In this document: positions 3,642 to 62,819 of the stretch, piece by piece
How the letters are laid out: each line of letters begins with the position of its first letter
Numbering within the stretch: the stretch's first letter is position 1
NCBI GenBank assembly: GCA_951406725.2
Contig: OX597826.1
Coordinates: 66,774,001 to 66,838,000 of the forward strand
Source: Octopus vulgaris
Taxonomy: Eukaryota
Direction of reading: 5' to 3'
DNA length: 64,000 nt
Notes under the pieces: model-generated
Told to the model about the DNA's origin: nothing
Database searches by the model: none
The model's input: only the letters and a program-made list of their open reading frames with translations
Translations under genes and position numbers: made by a program

Positions 3642-3859
3642 TTTTTTTTTCTTCTTTCAAATTTGCTTCCATTTCTTGCCGAGTGTCTTCCCGACTCCTA
3701 GGGCAAAGAAACTCATAGTATTCATTGGTAGGCCATTAAACCAAACTCAGTAGTTCGTTCATTAAAAATTTTTTTTTTAAAGTTAAATTAAAATACATGA
3801 GCAGCAACAGTTCTCACATCGACAATGCTCTTCTCAATACGTGTGATGTACCAGTTAAG
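3641..3859 (-). mobile_element. R4/Dong-like LINE 3' end, heavily 5'-truncated
   Basis: Minus strand encodes LTGTSHVLRRALSM*, matching the GTAHNLRKILSM* terminus near 43565-43605. It is followed by a 3' UTR, an A-run and a (TAA)n tail. Confidence 0.75.
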
Positions 3860-3924
3860 ACACGTATTGAGAAGAGCATTGTCGATGTGAGAACTGTTGC
3901 TGCTCATGTATTTTAATTTAACTT
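3780..3924. repeat. Perfect 65-bp inverted repeat with 15-bp spacer
   Basis: 3780-3844 is the exact reverse complement of 3860-3924. Confidence 0.97.
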
Positions 3925-7775: not shown

Positions 7776-7831
7776 CTAAAAGATAACGAAGCAAATGAAA
7801 TTTTTTTCGCTTTTAATATTTGGGTTGATTT

Positions 7832-8510
7832 AGGCTGCGAGCTGGCTGAATCGTTAGCACGCCGAACGAAATCCTTAGCGATATTTCGCCCGTCCCTACG
7901 TTCTGAGTTCAAATTCCGCCGAGGTCGGCTTTGCCTTTCATCCTTCCGGGGTCGATTATATAAGTACCAGTTACGCACTGGGGTCGATGTAATCCACTTA
8001 ATTCCTTTGTCTGTGCTTGTTTGCCCCCTCTATGTTTATACCCCCTGTGGGCAATAAATAAATACATGGGTTGAATTAAAGGCGGCAAGCTGGTAGAATC
8101 GTTAGTACGCCGGGCGAAATGTTTATCGGTATTTCGTCTTTATGTTCTGAGTTCAAATTCCGCCGAGGTCGACTATGCATTTCATCCTTTCGAGGTTCGA
8201 TAAATTAAGTACCAGTTGTGTACTGGGGTAGATCTAATCGACTGCCCCCCTCCCCAAAATTTCGGGCCTTGTGCCTAGAGTAGAAAAGAATATTTAGGCT
8301 GATTTAGGCGGCAAGCTGGTTAAATTTTTAGAACACGAGGCCAAATGTTAAACTGCATTTCGCCTGTATTTACGTTCTGAGTTCAAATTCCGCATAGGTC
8401 GACTTTGCCTTTCATCCTTTCTGGGTCTATAAAATCCTTTTATGGGGTCGATGTAATCACCTTACTCCCCTCCTCGAAATTGCTGGCCTTGTACCAAAAT
8501 TCGAAACTAA
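7832..8510 (+). mobile_element. Three adjacent SINE A copies (about 7832-8062 long tail, 8081-8292, 8307-8510)
   Basis: Each has the GGCGGC(A/G)AGCTGG head and the GAGTTCAAATTCC B box; they are separated by similar flanks of about 17 bp. Confidence 0.92.
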
Positions 8511-8763: not shown

Positions 8764-9187
8764 GTAAAAGGGAAGGAAAACGACCTTTAACAGAAAACAA
8801 TAACATTGTTCAGGACATTAAAAAATTATGGTACACAACAACAACAACAGAAACAGCAACTACTGCGGCAACAATAGCACTTGTTCATATACGCATAGAT
8901 TGCCAAGCAGAAGCGCAGAAAAAAATATGAAGGATATTTTAACAAAAGACTGTTGTGTTGTAAACAATAATTCTTTGAGAATAGTAGCAATAACAAAGAC
9001 AATAAAAATAACAAAGCCAACAAAGACAACTCTTTCGTGTGCTCTGTCTGTCGTACATGCGCACGTATCTTCAAAGGAAAGCGTTTCTAATCCTGCTCTT
9101 ACTCCGACCTTTGCAAAAGTGCTTTTAACCATATGAGCTCTTGGATATGGATTAGTTAAGAAAAGGAATAAAATGGTGACATTGTAT

Positions 9188-9496
9188 TTATTTCTTTACT
9201 ACCCACAAGGGGCTAAATACAGAGAGGAGAAACAAAGACAGACAAACGGATTAAGTCGATTATATCGACACCAGTGTATAACTGGTACTTATATTTAATC
9301 GACCCCGAAAGGATGAAAGGCAAAGTCGACCTCCGTGGAATTTGAACTCAGAACGTAACGGCAGACGAAATACCTATTTCTTTACTACCCACAAGAATGA
9401 AAGACCTCGGTGGAATTTGAACTCAGAACGTAACGGCAGACGAAATACGGCTACCTATTTCGCCTGGTGTGCTAACAATTCTGCCAGCTCGCCGCC
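9188..9496 (-). mobile_element. SINE A with internal tail-body duplication
   Basis: Reverse complement of family A with the junction at 9374/9375. Flanked by a probable TSD, AAAATGGT(G/A)ACATT at 9170-9183 and 9501-9514. Confidence 0.9.
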
Positions 9497-9564
9497 TTTT
9501 AAAATGGTAACATTATATCACAAAAACTTCTGTGGCTGGAAGAAAAGGATGGTAACTCACATTT

Positions 9565-9862
9565 GGAGGCACATGGCCTAGTGGTTAGAGCAGCAGACTA
9601 GCGGTCAAAGAATCGCGGGTTCGAATCTCAGACTGGGCGATGTGTGTGTTTATAAGCTCCACGCGGCTCCGACAGAAGGTAATGGCGAACTTCTGCTGGC
9701 TCTTTCGCCACAACTTTCTCTCACTCTTTTCTCCTGCATCTTGCAACTCACCTACGACCGACCAGCATCCCATCCAGTGCCAGTCGCATATTGGGGTCGA
9801 TCTAATCGACTGGCCCCCTTCCCAAAAATTTCGGGCCATGTGCCAAGAGTAGAAAAGCATAT
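9565..9862 (+). mobile_element. Chimeric SINE: family C-like head and body plus SINE A short tail
   Basis: TGGCCTAGTGGTTAG A box and GGTTCGAATC B box; body similar to 24169-24561; switches to the family A tail near 9778. Confidence 0.8.
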
Positions 9863-9889
9863 ATTCTGCTTCCTTCCTTACATTTGGAG

Positions 9890-10784: not shown

Positions 10785-11136
10785 TACTCTTTTACTTGTT
10801 TCAGTCATTTGACTGCGGCCATGCAGGAGCACCGCCTTTGTATGCCTAGTACTTAATATATCGGTGTCTTTTGCCGAACCGCTAAGTTACAGGGACGTAA
10901 ACACACCAGCATCGGTTGTCAAGCGATGTTGGGGGAAAAACACTGACACACACACATACACAATATATATATACATATACGACGGGCTTCTTCCAGTTTC
11001 CGTCTACCAAATCCATCCACAAGGCTTTGGTCGGCCCGAGGCTATAGTAGAAGACATTTGCTCAAGGTACCACGCAGTGGGACTGAACCCGGAACCATGT
11101 GGTTTCTAAGCAAGCTACTTACCACACAGCCACTCC
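10785..11136 (-). mobile_element. SINE family B
   Basis: Reverse complement of the 14299-14714 copy, with an internal deletion. Confidence 0.92.
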
Positions 11137-11291
11137 ATCGCATTTGTTGCTAATTCTAGTCTGTTTTTACATTTTAGTTAAAGTTATTAGCGCCAGAATG
11201 AAAGGGAAGAATAGGAATCACTTTGGAATATTCGTGTCGTAAGAGAAATGGGGTTAGTTTTTATAATCCCGTCTAATAGGCTGTCTCTGAA

Positions 11292-13177: not shown

Positions 13178-13390
13178 TTCAAGTTTTTGGTACAAGGCCA
13201 GCAAATTCGGGGTAGGGGCAAGTCGATTACATCGACCCCCAGTGTTCAAATGGTACTTATTTCATCTATTGCGGAAAAATGAAAGCCAAGGTCGACCTCG
13301 GCGGAATTTGAACTCAGAACATAAAAGGCAGTCTTAATGCTGCTAAACATTTTGCCCGGCGTGCTTAGGATTTTGCCAGTTCAGTTCGCC
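13178..13390 (-). mobile_element. SINE A (diverged)
   Basis: GGTCGACCTCGGCGGAATTTGAACTCAGAAC core. Confidence 0.85.
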
Positions 13391-13878: not shown

Positions 13879-14298
13879 GTAAGTCATCTCGCAACCAAAG
13901 TTCTATTATTCTACCACATTTATTACTTCTTATAAGCAGTGTGTGCCTTTGTGCATGAAGAGCTAAGGAAATCAACCTTCAAGACCCTCAGATGTTAGTG
14001 AGTGGAAATAAATGAATCCATAATATAAATTCATTTCGTAATATTCTACATGATTTAGTCTTTGTAAATGAAAACTGCAAATGTTCTCCATAAACACAGA
14101 ATCCATACCGAATGTCCATAAAGAGTCTCCATACAGAATCCTTGCAACTGTGAACTGAAGCTAAGGAAATCTATGAAAACGTTTACCGTCCCCACATTGT
14201 TCTGTTTTATATAAATGAGCACATCTATGGAGATTGAAATTCGAAAAAGTCAGCCCTTCCCCCGCAGACTTAGAAGGTGTATGGAATAAGGTATATTA

Positions 14299-14469
14299 GG
14301 CGCAGGAGTGGCTGTGTGGTAAGTAGCTTGTTTACCAACCACATGGTCTCGGGTTCAGTCCCACTGCGTGGCACCTTGGGCAAGTGTCTTCTACTATAGC
14401 CTCGGGTCGACCAAAGCCTTGTGAGTGGATTTGGTAGACGGAAACTGAAAGAAGCCCGTCGTATATATG

Positions 14470-14502
<33 letters not shown>

Positions 14503-14714
14503 TTGTGTGTCTGTGTTTGTCCCCCTAGCATTGCTTGACAACCGATGCTGGTGTGTTTATGTCCCCGTCACTTAGCGGTTCGGCAAAAGAGACCGATAGA
14601 ATAAGTACTGGGCTTACAAAAGAATAAGTCACGGGGTCGAGTTGCTCGATTAAAGGCGGTGCTCCAGCATGGCCGCAGTCAAATGACTGACACAAGTAAA
14701 AGAGTAAAAGAGTA
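14299..14714 (+). mobile_element. SINE family B, full length (CORE-like CTTGGGCAAGT motif, internal TA/TG microsatellite)
   Basis: GGCGCAGGAGTGGCTGTGTGGTAAG head, GGGTTCAGTCCC B box and (GTAAAAGA)n tail. Confidence 0.95.
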
Positions 14715-14827
14715 TGCAAAATTGGGTAGTATATATATCCATGCATACATACATACCTACATACATATGTACATTAAAAGGGAGTATGGAGCGAGTAACA
14801 TTTTATTACGTAATACAACAATTGCTG

Positions 14828-21796: not shown

Positions 21797-22068
21797 CTGA
21801 GAGGTTGGTAGATAGATATATGTGTTCAGACGTACACATATAACTTATTAGTCGTGAAACTACTTTGATTTTGCTGCTCCGTGTTTCCCGCCAAACACAT
21901 GCTTATGTATTATATGCACACGTCTACGTCTATGTTTAATCACACATGCGTGTGTGCATGTTCTTCTCGTCCTCTTTTGACTTTTAGAATAAATTTTAAC
22001 CGGCCACCAGCTTGGTAGCAAGTGTGTGAATGAAAGCTTTTTCGTTTTAGCTATCATACTTTCAATCT

Positions 22069-22664
22069 CGAGCGGCAGAAACGTTAGCACGCCGGGGGAA
22101 ATACTTAGCGGTATTTCGTCTGCCGTTACGTTCTGCGTTCAAATTCCGCCGAGGTCGACTTTACCTTTCATCCTTTCGGGGTCGATAAATTAAGTATCAG
22201 TTACGCACTGGAGTCGATATAATTGACTTAATCCGTTTGTCTGTCCTTGTTTGTCCTCTCTGTGTTTAGCCCCTTGTGAGTAGTAAAGAAATAGGTATTT
22301 CGTCTGCCGCTACGTCCTGAGTTCAAATTCCGCCGAGGTCGACTTTACCTTTCATACTTTCGGGGTCGATTAAATAAGTACCAGTTACGCACTGGGGTCG
22401 ATACAATCGACTTAATCCGTTTGTCTGTCCTTGTTTGTCCTCTCTGTGTTTAGCGCCTTGTGGGTAGTAAAGAAATAGGTATTTCATCTGTCTCTACGTT
22501 CTGAGTTCAAATACTGCCGAGGTCGATTTTACCTTTCATACTTTCGGGGTCGATTAAATAAGTATCAGTTACGCACTGGGGTCGATGTAATCGACTTAAT
22601 CCGTTTGTCTGTCCTTCTTTGTCCTCTCTGCGTTTATCCCTCTGTGGGCAATAAAGAAATAAAT
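22069..22664 (+). mobile_element. SINE A trimer (one head, three body+long-tail units, 184-bp period)
   Basis: AAAGAAATA|GGTATTTC junctions at 22293/22294 and 22477/22478. Confidence 0.95.
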
Positions 22665-22779
22665 CTTCAGAAGTTCTTGCAGACTTTTGTTCTTCCTGTT
22701 ATAGTGCTCATCTTTAGCGTATGAATTAAGGATTTGCATTCTCTCCCCAAGACGTATGTATTCTGTATGTATACGTGTA

Positions 22780-22833
<54 letters not shown>

Positions 22834-23612
22834 AGGAGAGAGATGTGAAAGTGCTCGATGTCTTCCTGACCAATACATGAGACAAGATAATTCCAACCCT
22901 TTCTTTTTTCTTCTTCTCCCTATTTTCCAACCAATTATCTGCTGTTTCTACAGAGAGGTTCTACAAATGCCAACAAAATGTAGTAACGAACGGTTTTCGT
23001 TTGATATAAATAAAAGACACTTGAGTGACAATGGATAAATGAAAAGAAATTTTGTGAGACATATGGCAGTTCGATTTGAAGGAAAAAAAAAGGAGTCGAA
23101 GCAATTAATTATTGAATTTGAAACAAAAGGCAATAATTGATACAAAGTCCTTCTAATGACATACGCAAGGGTGAGATTTTGAGAGAAAGCATTTAAGTGA
23201 TAAAAAGTGGATGGTGAGAGACAGGTGTAGGAAATTTATAAAATTTGTTTACACAGCTTTTCAAAAACTTCTCAAATAAAATTCAAATTCAAGTGGGAGA
23301 TTTTCACATTCTTCAAGAATATAAAACCAATCTGTCGGAAGAATAAAGTTATTCAAAATATATTTCGATGTCTGCATTTCAATTTCCTAAATTAATTCGC
23401 AGCTTGAATTTAGCAGATTAAAGAGAAGAATGGGGATTAACATAATTTTCAGTCGTGCATAAATTACAAACAAAAAAATAAATAAATAAAATAAAATAAA
23501 ATAAAATATGCTTTTGAGAAGTTGGTTATTGATCTATCAATTTTAAAGACTTAGCAACTGTAAATTCGGCGCCTGATAGATAATGATTGTTTCATCCTCC
23601 AGATTCCTAATA

Positions 23613-24015
23613 TATTCTTTTCTATTCTAGGAACAAAGCCCGAAATTTTGGGAGAGGGGGCAAGTCGATTAGATCGACCCGAGTACGCAACTGGTACTCA
23701 ATTTATCGACCTCAAAAGGATGAAAGGCAAAGTCGACCTCAGCGGAATTTGAACTAAGAACGTAAAGACGGACGAAATACCTATTTCTTTACTACCCACA
23801 AGGGGCTAAACACCGAGAGGACAAACAAGGACAGACAAACGGATTAAGTTGATTATATCGACCCCAGTGCGCAACTGGTACTTATTTAATCGACCCAGAA
23901 AGGATGAAAGGCAAAGTCGACCTCGGCGGAATTTGAACTCAGACGGACGAAAGACAGACGAAATACCGCTAAGCATTATTGCCCGGCATGCTAACGTTTC
24001 TGCCAGCTCACCGCC
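23613..24015 (-). mobile_element. SINE A dimer (long-tail unit followed by short-tail unit)
   Basis: Junction at 23781/23782; probable 16-bp TSD AGA(T/C)TC(C/T)TAATATATT at 23601-23616 and 24018-24033. Confidence 0.92.
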
Positions 24016-24168
24016 TAAGACTCTTAATATATTGTAATACCGTTTCTCAGCCTTTCTGAAAAGATAGTTGCGTAAAATGTTTCTTCTTTTGGAATCATGT
24101 TTCCTAAATCCTCCGTTTATTTCGCACGGAGATCCCTGGCAAATTATACTCTGCACCACGCCTTCATT

Positions 24169-29990: not shown

Positions 29991-30069
29991 ATCTATCTAT
30001 CTATTTATCTATCTATCTAGCTTTCTCCTTTTTTTATTTATTTATTTATTTTTTGTTCTTTTTATCCCT

Positions 30070-30218
30070 TTTACGATCCCTTTTGATCGAAAACCTACGC
30101 CACTTTTTTTTTGTTTCTTTTGTTTTTTGTTTTTTGTTTTTTTCATCCCCCAAAAGAAAAGCTCTACCTTGTAACTTATCCCATCTGTGTGCAGCCCTGT
30201 GTGGCCAATAAAGAAACT
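30070..30218 (+). mobile_element. LINE-like 3' end (same family as 36105-36398)
   Basis: TTACGATCC.TTTTGATCGAAA...CAGCCCTGTGTGGCCAATAAAGAAAC; lies within TATC/TAGC repeats. Confidence 0.7.
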
Positions 30219-35920: not shown

Positions 35921-36104
35921 TATATTATACGTCACTATCATTTTATCTTTATTTTTATATTTTCTTGCACACAGACACACAACAAACACGCACATCTTTC
36001 TCTCTGTCTGTCTATGTATGTATGTATGTAGGTATGAATGTATCTATCTATCTATCCATTCCTCCACCCAATCGCCTATCCACCCACCCACCCATCCATA
36101 TAAC

Positions 36105-36398
36105 ATGTGACTTCATTGACCGAGATTACCGTGGTCTTTTCTGTAGGCTTTTCTTTCCACGGGTAAACCTCACCTGTCTTCTCCTTTACACTTTACATTG
36201 ACATTTCAGTGATAACGATCCATATTGATCGATTTTTTCTTTTCCCTTTCCTATTTTTTTTTTTGTTTTTCTCTTTCTTTCCATTTACGATCCATTTTGA
36301 TCGAAAACCAACCCACCCTTTTTTATCTCCAAAAAGAAAAGCTCTATCTTGTAATTTGTCCCGTCTGTGTGCAGCCCTGTGTGGCTAATAAAGAAACA
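36105..36398 (+). mobile_element. LINE-like 3' UTR with AATAAA and (TATC)n tail
   Basis: Ends GTAATTTGTCCCGTCTGTGTGCAGCCCTGTGTGGCTAATAAAGAAAC, then (TATC)n; second copy at 30070. Confidence 0.7.
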
Positions 36399-42660: not shown

Positions 42661-43262
42661 CTGTTTTCCAGTTGTAAAAGTCCACGGCCACCTTCTTTTC
42701 TTGTCAGGTAAAGTTGTTCTATATCTGCGGCGAGCTGGCAGAAACGTTAGCACGCCGGGCGAAATGCATAGCTGTATTTCGTCTGCCATTACGATCCGAG
42801 TTCAAATTCCGCCGAGGTCGACTTTGCCTTTCATCCTTTCGGGGTCGATAAATTAAGTACCAGTTACGCACTGGGGTCGATGTAATCGACTTAATCCCTT
42901 TGTCTGTCCTTGTTTATCCCCTCTGTGTTTAGCTCCTTGTGGGTAGTAAAGTTGTTCTATATCTGCCTTAGGGTGGTACATTCTATACATTGTCAACAAT
43001 TTTCGTATTTTTCTGTCAAGATTACATATTTCAGCAATTGACCAGTTAATGATATTGAAACTGTAAGTCACGACTGGTATGGCTAAAGCATTGATCGCTT
43101 CCAACCTGTTTCTTGCATTCAGCTCTGTCTTGATTATTGCTCTCACTCTGCGATAACATTTTCTTCTGATTCTTTCCCTTATCAATGAATGTTTGATTGC
43201 GTTCCCTTCAAATACCCCAGGGTATTTGTAGCTCTCTGCTGGTTCTAATTCTTTTATGACAT
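42661..43262 (-). pseudogene. R4/Dong-like LINE RT-thumb fragment, split by a SINE
   Basis: LEPAESYKY.G...IRERIRRKCYRRVRAIIKTELNARNRLEAIN...HPKADIEQLY resumes after the SINE as LTRKEGGRGLLQLE (LYLxRxxGGRGL motif). Confidence 0.9.
42727..42951 (+). mobile_element. Young SINE A (long tail) with 21-bp direct repeat
   Basis: GTAAAGTTGTTCTATATCTGC at 42708-42728 and 42946-42966. A further partial SINE A lies at about 42555-42660. Confidence 0.95.
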
Positions 43263-43264
43263 TA

Positions 43265-43299
<35 letters not shown>

Positions 43300-49691: not shown

Positions 49692-50124
49692 ATACATATT
49701 TATATACGTATATATATGTATACATGTTTGTATAAATACATATGTATATATATATATATATATGTATGAATATATATATATATAAATATGCATTTATACT
49801 TGTGTGTATACATATATATATTTATGCATGTCTATGCATATTGTTATGCGCTTTCACATATATAAGCATATGTGAATGTTCTCATACATACCGACACATC
49901 AGTACACCCACTGACAAATCGACTCATCTCGCGCACGTGACCTGTGACATAGATATAGTCACAAACTTACTCAGATATACGAATTTGTATTCAGTATACT
50001 TTTTCTGTTCAGATTGCATATTATAAGCTGAACTCATCCTACTGAACTAAATTTACCATTTTCTTCCCTTTATACGTCATTTGAAAGATCGATATTCAGC
50101 ATTCTATGCGTTATGCTAATATAT

Positions 50125-50522
50125 TGGTAGAAACGTTAGCACTCCGGGCGAAATGCTTAGTGGTATCTCGTCTGCCGCTACGTTCTGAGTTCAAATTTCG
50201 CCGAGGTCAACTTTGCCTTTCATCCTTTCGAGGTCGATAAATTAAGTACCAATTACGCACTGGGGTCGATGTAATCGACTTAATCCGTTTGTCTGTCCTT
50301 GTTTGTCCCCTCTACGTTTGTCCCCTCTACTGCCCCCTTGTGGGCAGTAAAGAAATAGGCATTAAGACTGCCGTTGCGTTCTGAGTTCAGATTCTGCCGA
50401 GGTCGACTTTCCCTTTCATCCTTTCAGGGTCGATAGATTAAGCACCAGTTGCGTACTGGGGTCGATCTAATCAACTGGCCCCTCCCCTCCAAATATCGGG
50501 CCTTGTGCCTAGAGTAGAAAAT
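50125..50522 (+). mobile_element. SINE A dimer (long-tail unit followed by short-tail unit)
   Basis: Junction AAAGAAATA|GGCATT at 50357/50358. Confidence 0.9.
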
Positions 50523-50529
50523 AATTTAT

Positions 50530-51082
50530 TTGTTTCATGCATTAGATTGCGACCATGCTGCAGCACTGCCTCGAAAAATTTGTAGTTGAATTAATCGACC
50601 CCAGTACAGCATTTATGACAAATAAGGCTCTGTGCTACTTGGACAGGGCGCCGTTGACTAGAGGTCCCTTACAGTGCCTTGTGCTTAAGCACCCCTAAGC
50701 ACATTGGTAAATGCGGCACCGGTGGTCCCCAGTGATTATTTCGTTTTTCAAGCCTAACACTTATGCTATCGGTCGCTTTTGCCGAACCGCTAATTTACGG
50801 GGGACTTAAGCACATCAACATTTGTTGTCAAGTATTGGTAGGGGTCAAACACAGACACAAAGAAACACGAACATACACACACACACACACGCGCGCGCAC
50901 ATACACAGGAGCGCGCACTCAAACACATATGAGCTTTTTTTACTTTTCGTCTACCAAATCCGCACACAAGGAATCGGTCGGCCCGAGGCTATAGTAGAAG
51001 ACACTTCCCCAAGGGGGCACTCAGTGGGGATGAACCCGAAACCATGTGGTTGGGAAGCAAGCTTCTAACCTCACGACCACAT
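50530..51082 (-). mobile_element. SINE B interrupted by an insert of about 120 bp (50602-50721), possibly a hAT MITE
   Basis: SINE B motifs on both sides; insert ends CAGTACAGCATTTA and TAAATGCGGCACCG are imperfect inverted repeats. Confidence 0.7.
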
Positions 51083-53714: not shown

Positions 53715-54156
53715 GTCATTATTCAGTTTTATTTCAAGATTTCTTGCCAATAGAGAAAGAGCCGGTTTCTAACCTAAATCCAAGGCTCTTTCATTGAAAT
53801 TTCAACAACATCAACAGGCTATGTATGTATGTATGGAATTGTACAAATTTGTATGTCTTGTTTTATCTGTGTATTCTCATGCATGTAGTTGCATATCTAG
53901 ACATGTTCACATATATTTAAATGCTAAATTTCTAGAAAGTTTTACAGATTTTTACAGTTCCAGTGATAGACTGCATCTGTTGTCTTCGAATAAGCTTTCT
54001 CCTTTCTGATTTTGTGAAGCCTAATTTCTCATGATTGGTATTTAAGCAGTGCGTTACATATCCAATTGCTCCAATAATCACAGGTATAAACCTGAAATTG
54101 TGATCTGGATAAAGTAGTTGTAGATTCCTCAATAGTTCAACGTAGGTACTTTCTGG
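53715..54156 (-). mobile_element. R4/Dong-like (REL endonuclease) LINE 3' end
   Basis: YVELLRNLQLLYPDHNFRFIPVIIGAIGYV...QSITGTVKICKTF, then a 3' UTR ending AATAAAACTGAATAATGAC; CATA-type repeats on the flanks. Confidence 0.8.
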
Positions 54157-54235
54157 TATGTATGTAATATATGTTTGTTTGGTATGGTATGGTATGTATG
54201 GTATGGTATGGTTGGTATGTATGTATGTATGTATA

Positions 54236-54459: not shown

Positions 54460-55058
54460 TGTATATATATATATATACATGCATGAATGTATGTATATAT
54501 ATATGTGCTTCTCTGTATGTATGCATGTATGTATGTATGCATGTATGTATGTATGAATGAATGTATGTACGTATGCATGCGTGCATGTGTGTATAAACCT
54601 TTCCAGAGGCTTGATAGTTTGAGTACTTGTATCCTAGGATCACACTTGGATTTATCGAAGAATACATAAGCATCAGGTTGACTAAATATTGTGTAAACTA
54701 CTGTACAAGGCTACAACTTTGTTACAAAACTGCCAATAAACGCATCCAACTCAGTAAGCTTTCAACACCTCTTTCTTTCATGTTACAAAATTGCATAAAA
54801 CCCTTATTCAATACAAACCCACTTGAATATGAACGAAAGGCTGTGTCATCAGGCGATAAAAAAAATCAATACCCGCAAAATTAGAATGGAAACTTCCTAG
54901 AATTTCACCGCGTGTGACCAATGTCTGGTGGTTAATAAAAATTTCTAGGCTGCTCAGTTTTCTGCAATGATTGTTTATTGTGGACAGAGCCTGGAATATT
55001 CTGGACAGTGGGTCAGTCTTGCTCAGAGCATGACTTGGAATTTAAAGGTGAAGATAGA

Positions 55059-55225
55059 GGCGTAGGCGTAGGAGTGGCTGTGTGGTAAGTAGCTTGCTTA
55101 CGAACCACATGGTTCCGGGTTCAGTCCCACTCCGTGGCACCTTGGGCAAGTGTCTTCTACTATAGCCTCGGGCCGACCAAAGCCTTGTGAGTGGATTTGT
55201 TAGACAGAAACTGAAAGAAGCACGT

Positions 55226-55263
<38 letters not shown>

Positions 55264-55432
55264 CGTGTGTGTGTGTATGTTTGTGAGTCTGTGTTTGTCC
55301 CCCCCAACATCGCTTGACAACCGCAACTTAGCGGTTCGGCAAAAGACACCGACAAAATAAGTACTAGGCTTACGAAGAATAAGTCCTGGGGATGCTTACA
55401 GCCAAATGACTGAAACAAATAAAAGAATAAAC
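55059..55432 (+). mobile_element. SINE B with internal deletions
   Basis: GGCGTAGGAGTGGCTGTGTGGTAAG head and TAAAAGAA tail. Confidence 0.92.
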
Positions 55433-55587
55433 GAATGCAAAATATAACACGATATAGTCGCGTCCTTGAAACAGTATCGTTTCTACCAGTACCAAAATAC
55501 TTTAGTGTACGAGACTACGGTCTTGGAGGAACAGGGAATATAAACACGGAATGAACCGACCTTGGAAGTTTGATTGGGTTACTTTGC

Positions 55588-56382: not shown

Positions 56383-57559
56383 ATTTTAGCGACATGCAGC
56401 GCCAAAATCTTTTTTTTTTTTCTCTGATACTTGCCAGGGCGACAGTGGGAGGCAAATAAAAATTCGAATTGAAATGCATTCATTCGAAACTTTGAATAGC
56501 TGGGGTGTTTTTCTAAGTGTGTAATATCAAAAAGTTTTCGAATAGCTAGAATTGTTAGTCGGTACTCAATATCCTGGTTGCTAATTATTCAAATTTAGAA
56601 TTCGCAAATAGGTGTTCTCATTCATTTGAAATCAAGAAAATAATTTAACTCTCAACTTTTTTGTTACCAGAAACATTACAGTAATCTTTGCAACAACAAA
56701 TATTCACAAAATAAACTTCACAAAATCTACCAACATAGCGAAGATATGTATTGAACATATCACAGCTTCCACAACCAGCAGTGAATCGTGGTGCAGTGCT
56801 TTTATCATCTCGTCAAAAACAGGTATTTGCGTACAATAATTCTCTTGAGTAAAGTCTAATATTTGAGAACGATTACAGTAGAATTCCAAGGAGGATCATT
56901 ACTGATTCGAAATTGCAAAACATTACATTATTTTTCCTTAGCAGAACGAAAGGATTGAAAATTAAAAAGCAGAAAATTCAAAACCCAACGGATAATTGAA
57001 AATCTGTTATCATTGAGAAGCACATGGAGTTAAAACTATTTCAGTCCTTCTGAGTTTATAGCCTACTTAATCAACTTCCTCGACACCACCTGCTTCATGG
57101 TTTTTTTTTTCTTTCATCCATTAACACTGTCTTCGATATCCTGTTTGACATGTAATACACCCGAACCTTCCAACTTCTTTTGCTCTCATATTTTCTTCAT
57201 CCTGTCCATATTCATAGATATTTTTCTAAACATTTTTCTTGAGTCCGAGGGTTCTAAGGCCGTTCACCTGGTTTCCTTGACGTGTAAGTGATTGAGACCA
57301 CAGCATTATCTGGCGAAAAGTACACCTTTGAGAGGAGGGGACAAGTCTATTACATCGACCCCATTACTTGTCTGGCACTTCAGTCTATCGACTAAAGTTG
57401 ATCTCGGTGGGATTTGAACTCAGAACTTAAAGGTGCCAAGGTGCTACGAAATGGGACTGTTCCAGGAACCATGTGGTCGGGAAGCAAGCTTCTTACCACA
57501 CACTCATTCCTGCACCTATCTATCTACAATGAAGAGCTAAATTTATGAATGTATTAATT

Positions 57560-57930
57560 ATCCTTTATTCAGTAAGCGCAAGACCTGAAACTTTAGAGGC
57601 GAAGGTAAATCGATTACATCGAACCCAATGCTCCACCGGTACTTATTACATCGAAACCCGAAAGGATGAAAGGCAAAAATCGACCTCGGTGGAATTTGAA
57701 CTCAGAAATACCTATTTCTTTACTATCCACAAGGGGCTAAACACAGAGAGGACAAACAAGGACAGACAAACGGATTAAGTCGATATACATCGAACCTAGC
57801 GCTCTACCGGTACTTATTTCATCGAAACCCGAAAGGATGAAAGGCAAAATCGACCTCGGTGGAATTTGAACTCAGAAATACCGCTAAGCATTTTGCCTGG
57901 CTTGTTAACGATTCTGCCAGTTTGTTGCCG
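57560..57930 (-). mobile_element. SINE A dimer whose two bodies share private mutations
   Basis: Bodies at 57610-57712 and 57780-57882 flank a 67-bp long tail. Smaller SINE A and B scraps lie at about 57330-57515. Confidence 0.92.
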
Positions 57931-57954
57931 TTTTAGGTATATTAATTATAAAAA

Positions 57955-58200
57955 TAATTCTATCTCTCCGAATAACATTGCTGTCAAAGATTGAAAGAAA
58001 AGAAATGTCTGTTCGTACTTTGTAGTAAATGATTAGCGAGATTTATGAGTTTGACATTGTTTCTGCAATTTAACTTGATGACTCGACAGATGAGACAAAT
58101 TGTCTTCAGTTATCTATATTTTATCGACGAGGAGGAAATGAAGGCGTTTTGAAAAGATATTGTTGAACATAACTCTAGAAGCAACGATTTAGTCATAAAC
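57955..58200 (+). pseudogene. hAT-Charlie transposase relic, part 1
   Basis: EMSVRTL..SAI*LDDSTDETNCLQLSIFYR matches the QLDESTDxxNxxQL motif around the first catalytic D. Confidence 0.8.
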
Positions 58201-58217
58201 AATATTTTTTAAAAAGT

Positions 58218-58560
58218 GGTTTTAAATTTTGATTGAAGGCCAGCAATTTTAGTTGGAGGGCATTTAGTCAATTAAATCGACCACAGTGCTCAAATTATAC
58301 TTATTTTATCTGTACCGAAAGACTGAATGGCAAAGTCAACCTCGTTGGAATTTGATCTCAGAGCGTATAGAGCCTGAAAAACTGACGCTAAGTGAAGGCG
58401 TGGCTATGTGGTAAGAAGCTTACTTTAAACCATATGGTCTGGCTCCGGGCTCAGTCCAATTGCATGGCACCTTGGACATGTGTCTTCTACTATAGTCTCG
58501 GGCCAACCAAAGCCTTGGGAGCGGATTTGGTAGACGAAAACTGAAAGAAACCTGTCGTAT
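58218..58560. mobile_element. SINE A (minus, about 58218-58392) and SINE B 5' half (plus, about 58397-58560), head to head
   Basis: Family core motifs present in both. Confidence 0.85.
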
Positions 58561-58669: not shown

Positions 58670-59222
58670 CAAAGTGCGCTAAATATAGTGTCGTCTAAAT
58701 TAGGCAAAAATGAAAATAACTCTGACATTTCATTCTAACAGATATATTTACCAAAATTACACAAAAATGTCTTGAAATACTAAAGAGTAAATTAATTCAA
58801 TTAAATCGCCATTGGCTTCAACCACGGACTCCAGACGACTTCGGAATCTCCTGCAGCTCTTCTGGACGGTCCCTTCGTTTAAGTTGGTGAATGCTGCCAT
58901 AATCCTTGCCTTCAGTTCATCTTTGGTGTTACAAGGAGTTTTGTTGGTCTCTCGCTCAACTGCGTCACACCCATAATAATTAAGGGGGTTTCTATGTGGG
59001 GAGTTAGGTGGCCCGATCTTTGGGGTGATGTGATCGCAGAAACTGTCTGACAGCCATGACTGGCTTCTCCTGCTTGTGTGGTATGGTATAGAGTCCTGTT
59101 GCCAGACATAATGTCTTCCAGCTGCTACCCTCTTGACCCAGGGTAGCACTACCTCATCCAGGCACTTGATGTAGGCCTCCATGTTGTGTCTGAGGTCGTG
59201 TGGGAAGATGAGTGGAGACATA
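58670..59222 (-). mobile_element. Tc1/mariner maT (DD37D) transposon, 3' part
   Basis: ORF 58757-59221: WQQD...PPNSPHRNPLNYY has 37 residues between the second D and the decayed third D, ending CRRFRSRLESVVEANGDLIE. Terminus TA|CAAAGTGCG at 58670. Confidence 0.9.
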
Positions 59223-59227
59223 TGATA

Positions 59228-60330
59228 GCTTTGAAGTAATAAATTCCTTTTTTAGACAATGCAGTTTATAATGAGAAAATCTGAAAGGCTGTACAAATGA
59301 TGGGTCACTGATAATATTAGAAGGGTCTTTAGAGCTCATTTCATTGAAATAGCTGCGCATGTGACATTTATGCATTGGATGATCAAACACGGTGCTGTGA
59401 TTTGTAGGGTTCTATCAACAATCCAGTTTATCGTTACAATTGTTAATGGTGGCTAATCATGTAAACGGGAAATGCTCCTAGAACCTGGGTATTTTAACTG
59501 ATGCGTAGAGATTTTGGTACTTTTGACAGGGTATACCTTTTTATTTTCTAATATATTGAGGGGTTGCCGTAGAAAAGCCTTAAGACTTGTCCTTACACTT
59601 CAAAAAGAATAGCTGGAATCTTTTTGACATTCAAACAAACGTGAACATTTTGGTCATTTCATAGAAATACCTTTTTTCTTTCTTATCCGAATCTTGCTTC
59701 TTTCTTTGAAGAACTAAATATGCAAAACGAGAACCTTTAAGATGCCGACGCAACTGTTTGTGAATTTGCGTCTGAGATTTTTTTTATATTGCAAAGCTTT
59801 TCATGCAGAGATGAAATTGTGATACTTCGGTTATTTTTAATAACGTGACAGAATTTCTCGATCAGAATTCGCAATGTAAGAATGGCATAACCAGAGAATG
59901 AACCACAAAGAATATCATAACGTTGGAAGAATAAGTTAATGGATATTAATGAATATTTCCCAAATATTGGTGACGAGAAATTTAGTGTGATATCGGAATC
60001 GTTTCACTGCAATTGCTACGCTGGAATTTGAAACAGATATGAAAGAAACTAATCTGGTTAAGCTTCAGAGTGATGATTCTGAACATTATGAATTACCAGA
60101 GGATTTATGTGTTTTTTTTTTGGGGGGGGGGGAGGGATTCCAGATGCGCAAATAATCCAAATGGATTGTTGAATCTGTTTTCCAAACATTGCTGCTATTT
60201 CCGCCAACATAGCTTTTGTGATTTAACAGGCCGAGTGTTAACTCAAAACAAATCAAATCACGAAATTAAAACAATATTACAGTATGCGCATTGTTTATTG
60301 AGTATCGTTGCATATTTTTCATAATCGTCC
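59228..60330 (+). pseudogene. hAT-Charlie transposase relic, part 2
   Basis: INSFF..ENLKGCTNDG, TFMHWMIKH (HCxIH), LLFSNILR..KALRLVLTLQKE, FFEELNMQNENL and LLLFPPT*L (dimerisation domain), in the correct order. Confidence 0.8.
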
Positions 60331-62212: not shown

Positions 62213-62261
<49 letters not shown>

Positions 62262-62271
62262 CAGTTGTATA

Positions 62272-62453
62272 ATTAAGAGATGAGAAATTATGTACATCAT
62301 TTACAATTGACGGATATTTGTCCTCATCTTTTTGGCTGATACACCCTCCAGCCTTCATCAGGTATCTTGGGGGAAATTTCGAACCTGGGTTCTCATTCCT
62401 AAGGTATTTTCGATGGTGTTGTTGTTGTTATCATTATCATTATCATCATCATC

Positions 62454-62504
<51 letters not shown>

Positions 62505-62777
62505 GTATGTATGTTGTTGTTGTTGTTGTTGTTATTACTACTACTACTATTATTATCATTATTATTATTATTATTATTATCATTATTATTATTATGATTA
62601 TTATTATTATTCAGGTCTCTGCCTGGAATCTAACTCGGAATCTTGGGGTTAGTAGTCCGCGCTCTTAACGACTCCGCCATATGCTCGATGAACGCTGGAG
62701 GCTATATCAGCCGAAACGTTGTGTTAACAACAAAGAAGATGAGGACAAATATCCGTCGATTGTAAATAATGTAAATA

Positions 62778-62782
<5 letters not shown>
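62272..62782 (-). mobile_element. tRNA-headed element with (AAT)n spacer and hammerhead-bearing Penelope-like tail, plus an inverted tail copy
   Basis: Head 62684-62612 (TGGCGGAGTCG A box, GAGTTAGATTCC B box); CTGATGA at 62361-62355; inverted copy at 62685-62782 with GAAACGTTGTGT. Confidence 0.75.

Positions 62783-62819
<37 letters not shown>

Follow-up and report, generated by a model that had tools for sequence, protein, structure and literature searches.

How does a SINE come to carry its body twice, once on either side of a young tail, and why does the same joint between tail and body return at other places? The 57.7-kb locus raises this question within a 64-kb window (the whole stretch of DNA analysed), and the sequence analysis is based on that window together with one comparison with public sequencing runs. 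The joint is real and unusual: its 3' side is fixed and its 5' join varies, which is the pattern of target-specific non-LTR retroposition. The preliminary description had proposed a SINE that targets its own family through a site-specific endonuclease, with a general duplication of ~100-120 bp. Self-targeting with a fixed 3' junction stands, and the endonuclease and the general duplication are less supported.

The window is AT-rich animal DNA with dense microsatellites and two plentiful families of short repeats. The SINE family is short, non-coding, multicopy and dispersed, with 24 units or fragments aligned in the 64 kb; the distance table comprises 18 of these, without six short or heavily deleted fragments. 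The heads of aligned copies carry A- and B-box-like motifs (TGGCAGAATCGTT and GAGTTCAAATTCC), as found in tRNA-derived SINEs. These motifs are read as the A and B boxes; ARAGORN called no tRNA gene. Outer target duplications are significant against shuffled sequence (p<0.004) at five of the 11 loci examined, one inside a microsatellite. The family presumably resembles a known octopus tRNA-derived family, and its tRNA-like head, conserved central block and exchangeable tails are, we assume, comparable to those of the octopus SINEs OR1, OR2 and OK and of SINEs with MetaSINE-type central domains. Tandem formation of the usual kind is seen at 7815-8480 (+), where three SINEs with different tail types follow one another with the same ~18-nt AT-rich duplication between them; this is sequential insertion at one ordinary site and provides the control for how tandems usually form. 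At 9776-9865 (+) the family is represented by a short-tail fragment whose 5' truncation reaches far into the body. The second plentiful family, ~400 bp long with internal microsatellites, is present at about 14 places (e.g., 10785-11139, 14296-14765, 55049-55436), and fixed-junction dimers are absent from the four copies of it read by eye.

Table 1. Features of the 57.7-kb locus, other loci with the tail-body junction and a control insertion (positions in the window)
Feature	Positions	Strand	Remarks
tRNA-like head of resident SINE	57883..57930	-	A-box-like TGGCAGAATCGTT; old, 8/47 from window majority
Body copy 1, 103 nt	57780..57882	-	Resident's 16-nt deletion and private substitutions
Young long tail, 67 nt	57713..57779	-	1/67 from majority; ends AAAGAAATA
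Fixed junction, AAAGAAATA joined to GGTATTTC	57705..57721	-	Exact 17-mer match
Body copy 2 = resident body	57610..57712	-	By alignment
Old short tail	~57560..57609	-	Decayed relative of the 3.4-kb tail type
Possible old target duplication, downstream copy	57552..57561	-	10-nt core; weak, shuffle p=0.07
Possible old target duplication, upstream copy	57940..57949	-	Partner of 57552-57561
9.4-kb locus	9185..9498	-	Head, ~50-60 nt of body, last ~21 nt of long tail, junction, full body, long tail
22-kb locus	22066..22665	+	Trimer of 184-nt units, junctions 22293 and 22477
23.8-kb locus	23610..24016	-	Head, mostly long-type body, young tail, junction 23782/23781, short-type body and tail
50-kb locus	50120..50530	+	Truncated head, long-type body, tail, junction 50357 (GGCATT), body of a different subfamily, short tail
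Control long-tail monomer	42726..42951	+	Unrelated site; perfect 21-bp duplication starting in 6-nt tail microhomology

The junction consists of the tail end AAAGAAATA joined to GG(T/C)ATT and is found at six places, in five loci, of the window. Its recurrence at one position, already noted in the preliminary description, is confirmed: the exact 17-mer AAAGAAATAGGTATTTC occurs at 9367-9383(-), 22285-22301(+), 22469-22485(+), 23774-23790(-) and 57705-57721(-), and the sixth case, at 50357(+), reads AAAGAAATA followed by GGCATT. Shuffled sequences contain the 17-mer 0.02 times on average, and none of 100 shuffles reaches the five occurrences observed. The junction carries six of the seven complete young-type tails and six of the 11 long-tail ends overall. 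All six junctions are in register and the tail has an invariant length there; the 5' joins differ among the five loci. Random landing of this kind (~17 sites, 128,000 strand-positions) has a probability of ~1e-21, a value that excludes chance, not inheritance. Below the one junction, four terminal tail types and differing second bodies are found among the five loci, which rejects one dimeric master moving as a unit; rolling-circle copying of a single RNA is rejected because the terminal tails differ.

Body 2 takes on the resident type within 8, 2 and 13 nt of the junction at the three loci that are informative, indicating priming at the junction itself. At 9.4 kb, C opens the first body and G the junction copy, suggesting that the G was templated by the donor and that the nick fell at +1/+2, not straight after GCTTAGC as had been proposed. 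The AATA-type microhomology that the family uses elsewhere is absent here; together with the invariance of the joint and its apparently donor-made first G, this absence suggests that the junction is templated. Long tails also sit at five unrelated sites, several with 18-21-bp duplications that begin in short tail microhomology. Internal tails depart from the majority at 10/356 positions and terminal tails at 43/321 (p=2e-7), and the comparison with the two young-type terminal tails (7/128) is not significant (p=0.17). The heads at junction loci are more diverged than internal tails when CpG sites are counted (16/170, p=0.002) and not significantly so when CpG and polymorphic columns are removed (6/130 vs 10/356, p=0.39). 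Intact copies can fold an 11-13-bp hairpin of modest stability (z -2.0 at 42.8 kb), with the target point at its apex. This hairpin is lost at 57.7 kb today, and the tail RNA folds no better than shuffles (z 0.31 to -1.03).

The 57.7-kb locus is the clearest case of a copied resident. Its two bodies are 6.9% apart, against at least 16.8% (16.8-27.7%) to other full bodies; only a 46-nt fragment at 9.4 kb is nominally closer to a 57.7-kb body (6.5%). Both have the 16-nt deletion, flanked on both sides by TTC, and eight substitutions in 105 sites; two further sites are private to body 1, three are private to body 2 and one is different in both. Resident body 2 departs from the majority at 11/105 positions and the tail at 1/67 (Fisher p=0.03). 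The common deletion and substitutions, with a tail so close to the majority, thus indicate that a decayed resident body was copied, in agreement with the earlier proposal that the duplicated body is the local one and the tail alone is new. Among the changes first listed as private, CTCGGTGG is not, being a CpG change present in 5/22 other units.

A local duplication of ~100 bp is not the rule that it was first taken for, as a full resident duplication is found at one of the five loci only; it is one outcome among several. Similarly, the expectation that bodies are closer within than between loci is clearly borne out at 57.7 kb, weakly at 9.4 and 22 kb, and fails at 23.8 and 50 kb. The 5' side varies accordingly: the whole resident body was copied at 57.7 kb, the body is mostly or wholly that of the donor at 23.8 and 50 kb, and ~21 nt of tail are present at 9.4 kb. 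At the last of these loci (junction 9375/9374, outer duplication of 19 bp), the tail remnant is joined near a CCTT microhomology common to body and tail, a later deletion could alternatively be the source of the short remnant, and within-locus sharing amounts to one CpG site. The 22-kb locus has young internal tails and a terminal tail of an older type. Sharing is modest there (one near-private site in all three units and one each in two pairs), and the units are mosaic, which suggests some later conversion. At 23.8 kb, where the outer duplication measures 16 bp, the two bodies differ by 14.5% (ranks 8 and 5 of 17), and at 12 of 15 columns body 1 has the long-type base. The 50-kb internal tail has a 12-nt insertion, and the bodies around it are 17.9% apart (ranks 12 and 6 of 17), body 1 showing the long-type majority at 16 of the 19 columns where body 2 differs. 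A four-base variant at the target point, common to the 13.3-kb monomer (13329-13340, -) and the 50-kb body 2 (50359-50370, +), marks a minor SINE subfamily. Since body 1 is long-type and body 2 opens with this variant, body 1 at 50 kb was not copied locally. A conversion of short-tail SINEs to long-tail ones, as first suggested, is only partly apt, because the residents at 9.4 and 22 kb have long terminal tails and no locus has lost a short tail. It had also been stated that target duplications normally stay under 30 bp. The rotifer element R9, whose target duplication is reportedly exceptionally long at 126 bp, is a published exception.

Retroposition of the SINE into a fixed point of its own family, taking RNA-guided and nuclease-based models together, is likely. 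The mechanism favoured here, albeit tentatively, is pairing of resident copies with read-through RNA from a junction-bearing master, on the grounds that the junction does not vary and that its first G seems to come from the donor. A young long-tail SINE would insert by target-primed reverse transcription at one fixed point in copies of the family. Its RNA would be read through from a master in which a body follows the tail, so that the 3' extension is body sequence, and this extension would pair with the bottom strand of the resident from precisely the junction onwards. A nick at the boundary (+1/+2, the apex of the small hairpin) would prime copying of the tail. The cDNA could then anneal to the displaced resident body, giving a duplication of up to ~100-117 nt that stops where homology ends (57.7 kb), or do so by microhomology, giving the 9.4-kb product; annealing to the resident head instead would bring in the donor body, as at 50 kb and largely at 23.8 kb. 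As every product has a junction of its own, such insertion would sustain itself and give rise to 184-nt arrays. Where long tails landed at unrelated sites, 3' microhomology was used, suggesting an enzyme that starts from RNA-DNA pairing and does not depend strictly on one site.

Each step of this scheme has a precedent in work on R2 and related elements: priming by R2 is guided, and can be rescued, by homology at the 3' end, even where Cas9 has made the nick (PMC10499050); annealing of the tail gives R2 its seamless 3' junctions, while the 5' side falls into "anneal" and "join" classes (PMC11371274); and target-specific non-LTR elements typically have a 3' boundary that is fixed and a 5' boundary that varies (PMC4640811). 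Against RNA pairing, the 50-kb resident differs from the donor at +3, +7, +8 and +10, which would weaken pairing at the primer end. The small number of loci also counts against it, five in all and one with a full resident duplication, and neither a master copy nor its read-through RNA, a partner LINE or an empty allele turned up in the 64-kb window or in four runs. The modest hairpin, lost at 57.7 kb, the age contrasts that lack significance and the mosaic units at 22 kb weigh the same way. The fullest form of the read-through scheme would be a natural RNA-guided homing SINE, in which the junction arose once, no sequence-specific nuclease acts, homology (~100 nt) sets the length of the duplication and a burst of the tail seeds arrays; this is conceivable, if rather unlikely. 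If true, a new LINE-recognition tail would have spread through old copies in a lineage-specific burst.

An invariant junction is equally what inheritance predicts. Under a DNA-level explanation, a founding dimer made the junction, dimers spread as units, and recombination, ectopic or allelic, together with gene conversion swapped tails and homogenised bodies. The body pairs at 23.8 and 50 kb, no closer than pairs between loci, fit this history, as do the mosaic units at 22 kb and the ascription of reptile sSats and clam arrays to unequal recombination. Even the 57.7-kb arrangement could be reached, for example if conversion from an empty allele turned a donor-type body 1 resident-type up to the end of homology. 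However, conversion would have to cross ~18% divergence and a 16-nt gap, four different tails would have to be recruited under one junction at five loci, and at 57.7 kb the body is older than the tail (p=0.03), which together make the DNA-level history unlikely, though not far-fetched. One crossover, or the integration of a circle, should leave switch points that are complementary; this version is rejected, as both 57.7-kb bodies are resident-type along ~100 nt. Fresh nicking at each event by a sequence-specific LINE endonuclease (Tx1- or NeSL-like), with the 5' end resolved by homology downstream or upstream, would produce the fixed 3' and variable 5' boundaries that PMC4640811 describes as the signature of target-specific non-LTR elements, and SINEU-3 and Tx1-Mar do target another transposon (PMC4494074). 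A tail-like 3' end is moreover found in (TATC)n twice in the window, as with microsatellite-specific LINEs. Yet the five long tails at unrelated sites make a site-specific nuclease doubtful, tail length does not vary at the junction, +1 at 9.4 kb is G, against C in the first body, four of the ten bases that open the 50-kb target are different, and no LINE abuts the site within the window; repeated nicking of this kind appears unlikely.

The fixed junction with any subfamily downstream, and the single outer duplication at 23.8 kb, would also follow if a full long-tail RNA were linked, by ligation or by a jump during reverse transcription, to the 5' end that cleavage at the hairpin apex leaves on another SINE RNA, the chimera then being inserted as a unit; extra-template junctions are known for R2 (PMC11371274). 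Such a chimera is improbable, because it cannot account for a young tail at 57.7 kb whose two neighbouring bodies are decayed and have the same private changes, and Rfam gives no ribozyme: none matches at the gathering threshold in the 64 kb, and none is among seven weak matches in 22.0-24.1 kb. A ribozyme-bearing retrozyme is rejected likewise, as no described self-cleaving ribozyme was found at the unit boundary by Rfam. Tandem repeats of 171-184 nt in a repeat-rich genome, at a locus that no contig of the four compared runs spans, might finally suggest local slippage duplication or an assembly artefact. This is very hard to credit, given that breakpoint homology is lacking and that the junction recurs in other runs. 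Simple slippage in particular is rejected: the duplicated bodies differ by 6.9%, and the internal tail was not copied from the terminal tail at 57.7, 23.8, 50 or 22 kb.

Similar architectures have been published as reptile sSats, clam arrays and SINEU-3. In crocodilians, SINEU-3, like Tx1-Mar, strongly prefers one site in another repeat and forms tandem copies by sequential insertion, but its target is a Mariner element, the expected duplication is 16 nt and specificity is ascribed to the Tx1 endonuclease (PMC4494074). The octopus SINE, in contrast, targets its own family, and its 5' side can duplicate ~100 nt. Squamate SINE-derived satellites likewise repeat in tandem a unit that is shorter than the SINE, its boundaries being consistent and the terminal unit longer; they differ in being attributed to unequal recombination and later homogenisation and in reaching arrays of up to hundreds of units, and the available text mentions neither mixed old and young parts nor a switch of tail type (PMC10702118). 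The octopus loci are not sSats in the strict sense, for which at least four homogeneous middle units are required, the longest array here having 3.0 copies of 184 nt. The arrays of Scapharca broughtonii also begin with a full head, continue with units head-truncated at one position and have one outer duplication, whereas their internal tails are truncated and the last is complete, and unequal recombination is proposed; the available text does not treat resident against donor ancestry (PMC11481361). R2 and R9 share the fixed 3' junction aided by pairing between RNA and target and the 5' end formed by annealing or joining, but they are autonomous and find their rDNA target via protein DNA-binding domains (PMC10499050, PMC11371274); the octopus SINE is non-coding and has a dispersed self target. 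The available text of articles on octopus SINEs does not mention self-targeting (PMC4824008, PMC4758252, PMC5804259). By title or abstract start, no paper on this junction or on octopus SINE self-targeting was found, in a search outside which most subscription papers lie.

If self-targeting is true, head-truncated SINE arrays, ascribed to unequal recombination in reptiles and clams, would have a retroposition origin. It would also explain the exchange of LINE-derived tails between SINE families, which the available text of PMC4824008 calls unknown, and would be a natural instance of RNA homology choosing an insertion site, as engineered for R2. Insertion into its own dispersed copies would offer the SINE a low-harm niche.

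Public runs provide a further view of the locus. Among 24 runs listed, four were compared with 56800-58300, and 22 raw reads were included. No contig or read of the four runs spans the 57.7-kb locus, the orthologous contigs breaking in repeats: X4 contigs cover 57482-57678 and 57891-58300, and those of X10 and X20 cover the left flank. Among the joints listed, that from 57877 to 57705 (the junction behind undeleted bodies) was seen in 15 X4 contigs, in 8 X20 contigs and in no contig from X10, whose flank is 4.7% diverged (vs 1.8-1.9%). Ratios of tail to body from summed contig depths, which are not copy numbers, are 2.45 (X4), 2.41 (X20) and 0.46 (X10); they hint at a recent burst and are not counted as evidence. 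A genome-wide search for junctions by way of spurious antisense proteins gave no candidate.

No partner LINE was detected in the window: no ORF is attached to the tail-like elements, and a Pfam search of 30 of the 250 candidate ORFs gave no family. T-rich, 5'-truncated elements lie in or beside (TATC)n at 30020-30217 (+) and ~36100-36397 (+), and their 3' ends (30.2 and 36.4 kb) are 59-65% like the SINE long tail. Judged by this resemblance, they are a candidate 3'UTR of the partner LINE and may lead to a microsatellite-targeting LINE, which we guess could belong to a Tx1-like clade. A non-LTR reverse-transcriptase fragment at 42856-43269 (-) (11 matches at 53-64% identity, five with PF00078) adjoins a TAA-type microsatellite and is interrupted by the 42.8-kb SINE with its perfect 21-bp duplication; not being linked to the tail, and merely interrupted by the SINE, it is rejected as the partner. 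ORF fragments at 53935-54162 (-) and 58760-59251 (-) have no Pfam match at E<=0.01; the former presumably resembles a LINE C-terminus and the latter a mariner-type transposase.

Pattern scans for further SINE copies gave none in viral contigs and, in prokaryote genomes, none and then one chance bacterial match. The sole metagenome match is a contig end (L001, 6400-6613) with a tRNA-like head and the central block of the SINE but a different head and different flanks, suggesting that the block is common to the SINE of another organism. Several other repeats were observed in the window. A near-perfect palindrome of 145 bp (93%) at 3780-3924 adjoins a TTA array, and an element with ~100-bp inverted ends lies between (TA)n tracts at 62225-62816, with long TAA-type repeats inside. 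The tandem array at 1016-1577 comprises 16.6 copies of a 34-bp unit whose start is ACCGCTAAG, a motif that recurs in antisense immediately next to the SINE target point and is found in the second repeat family as well.
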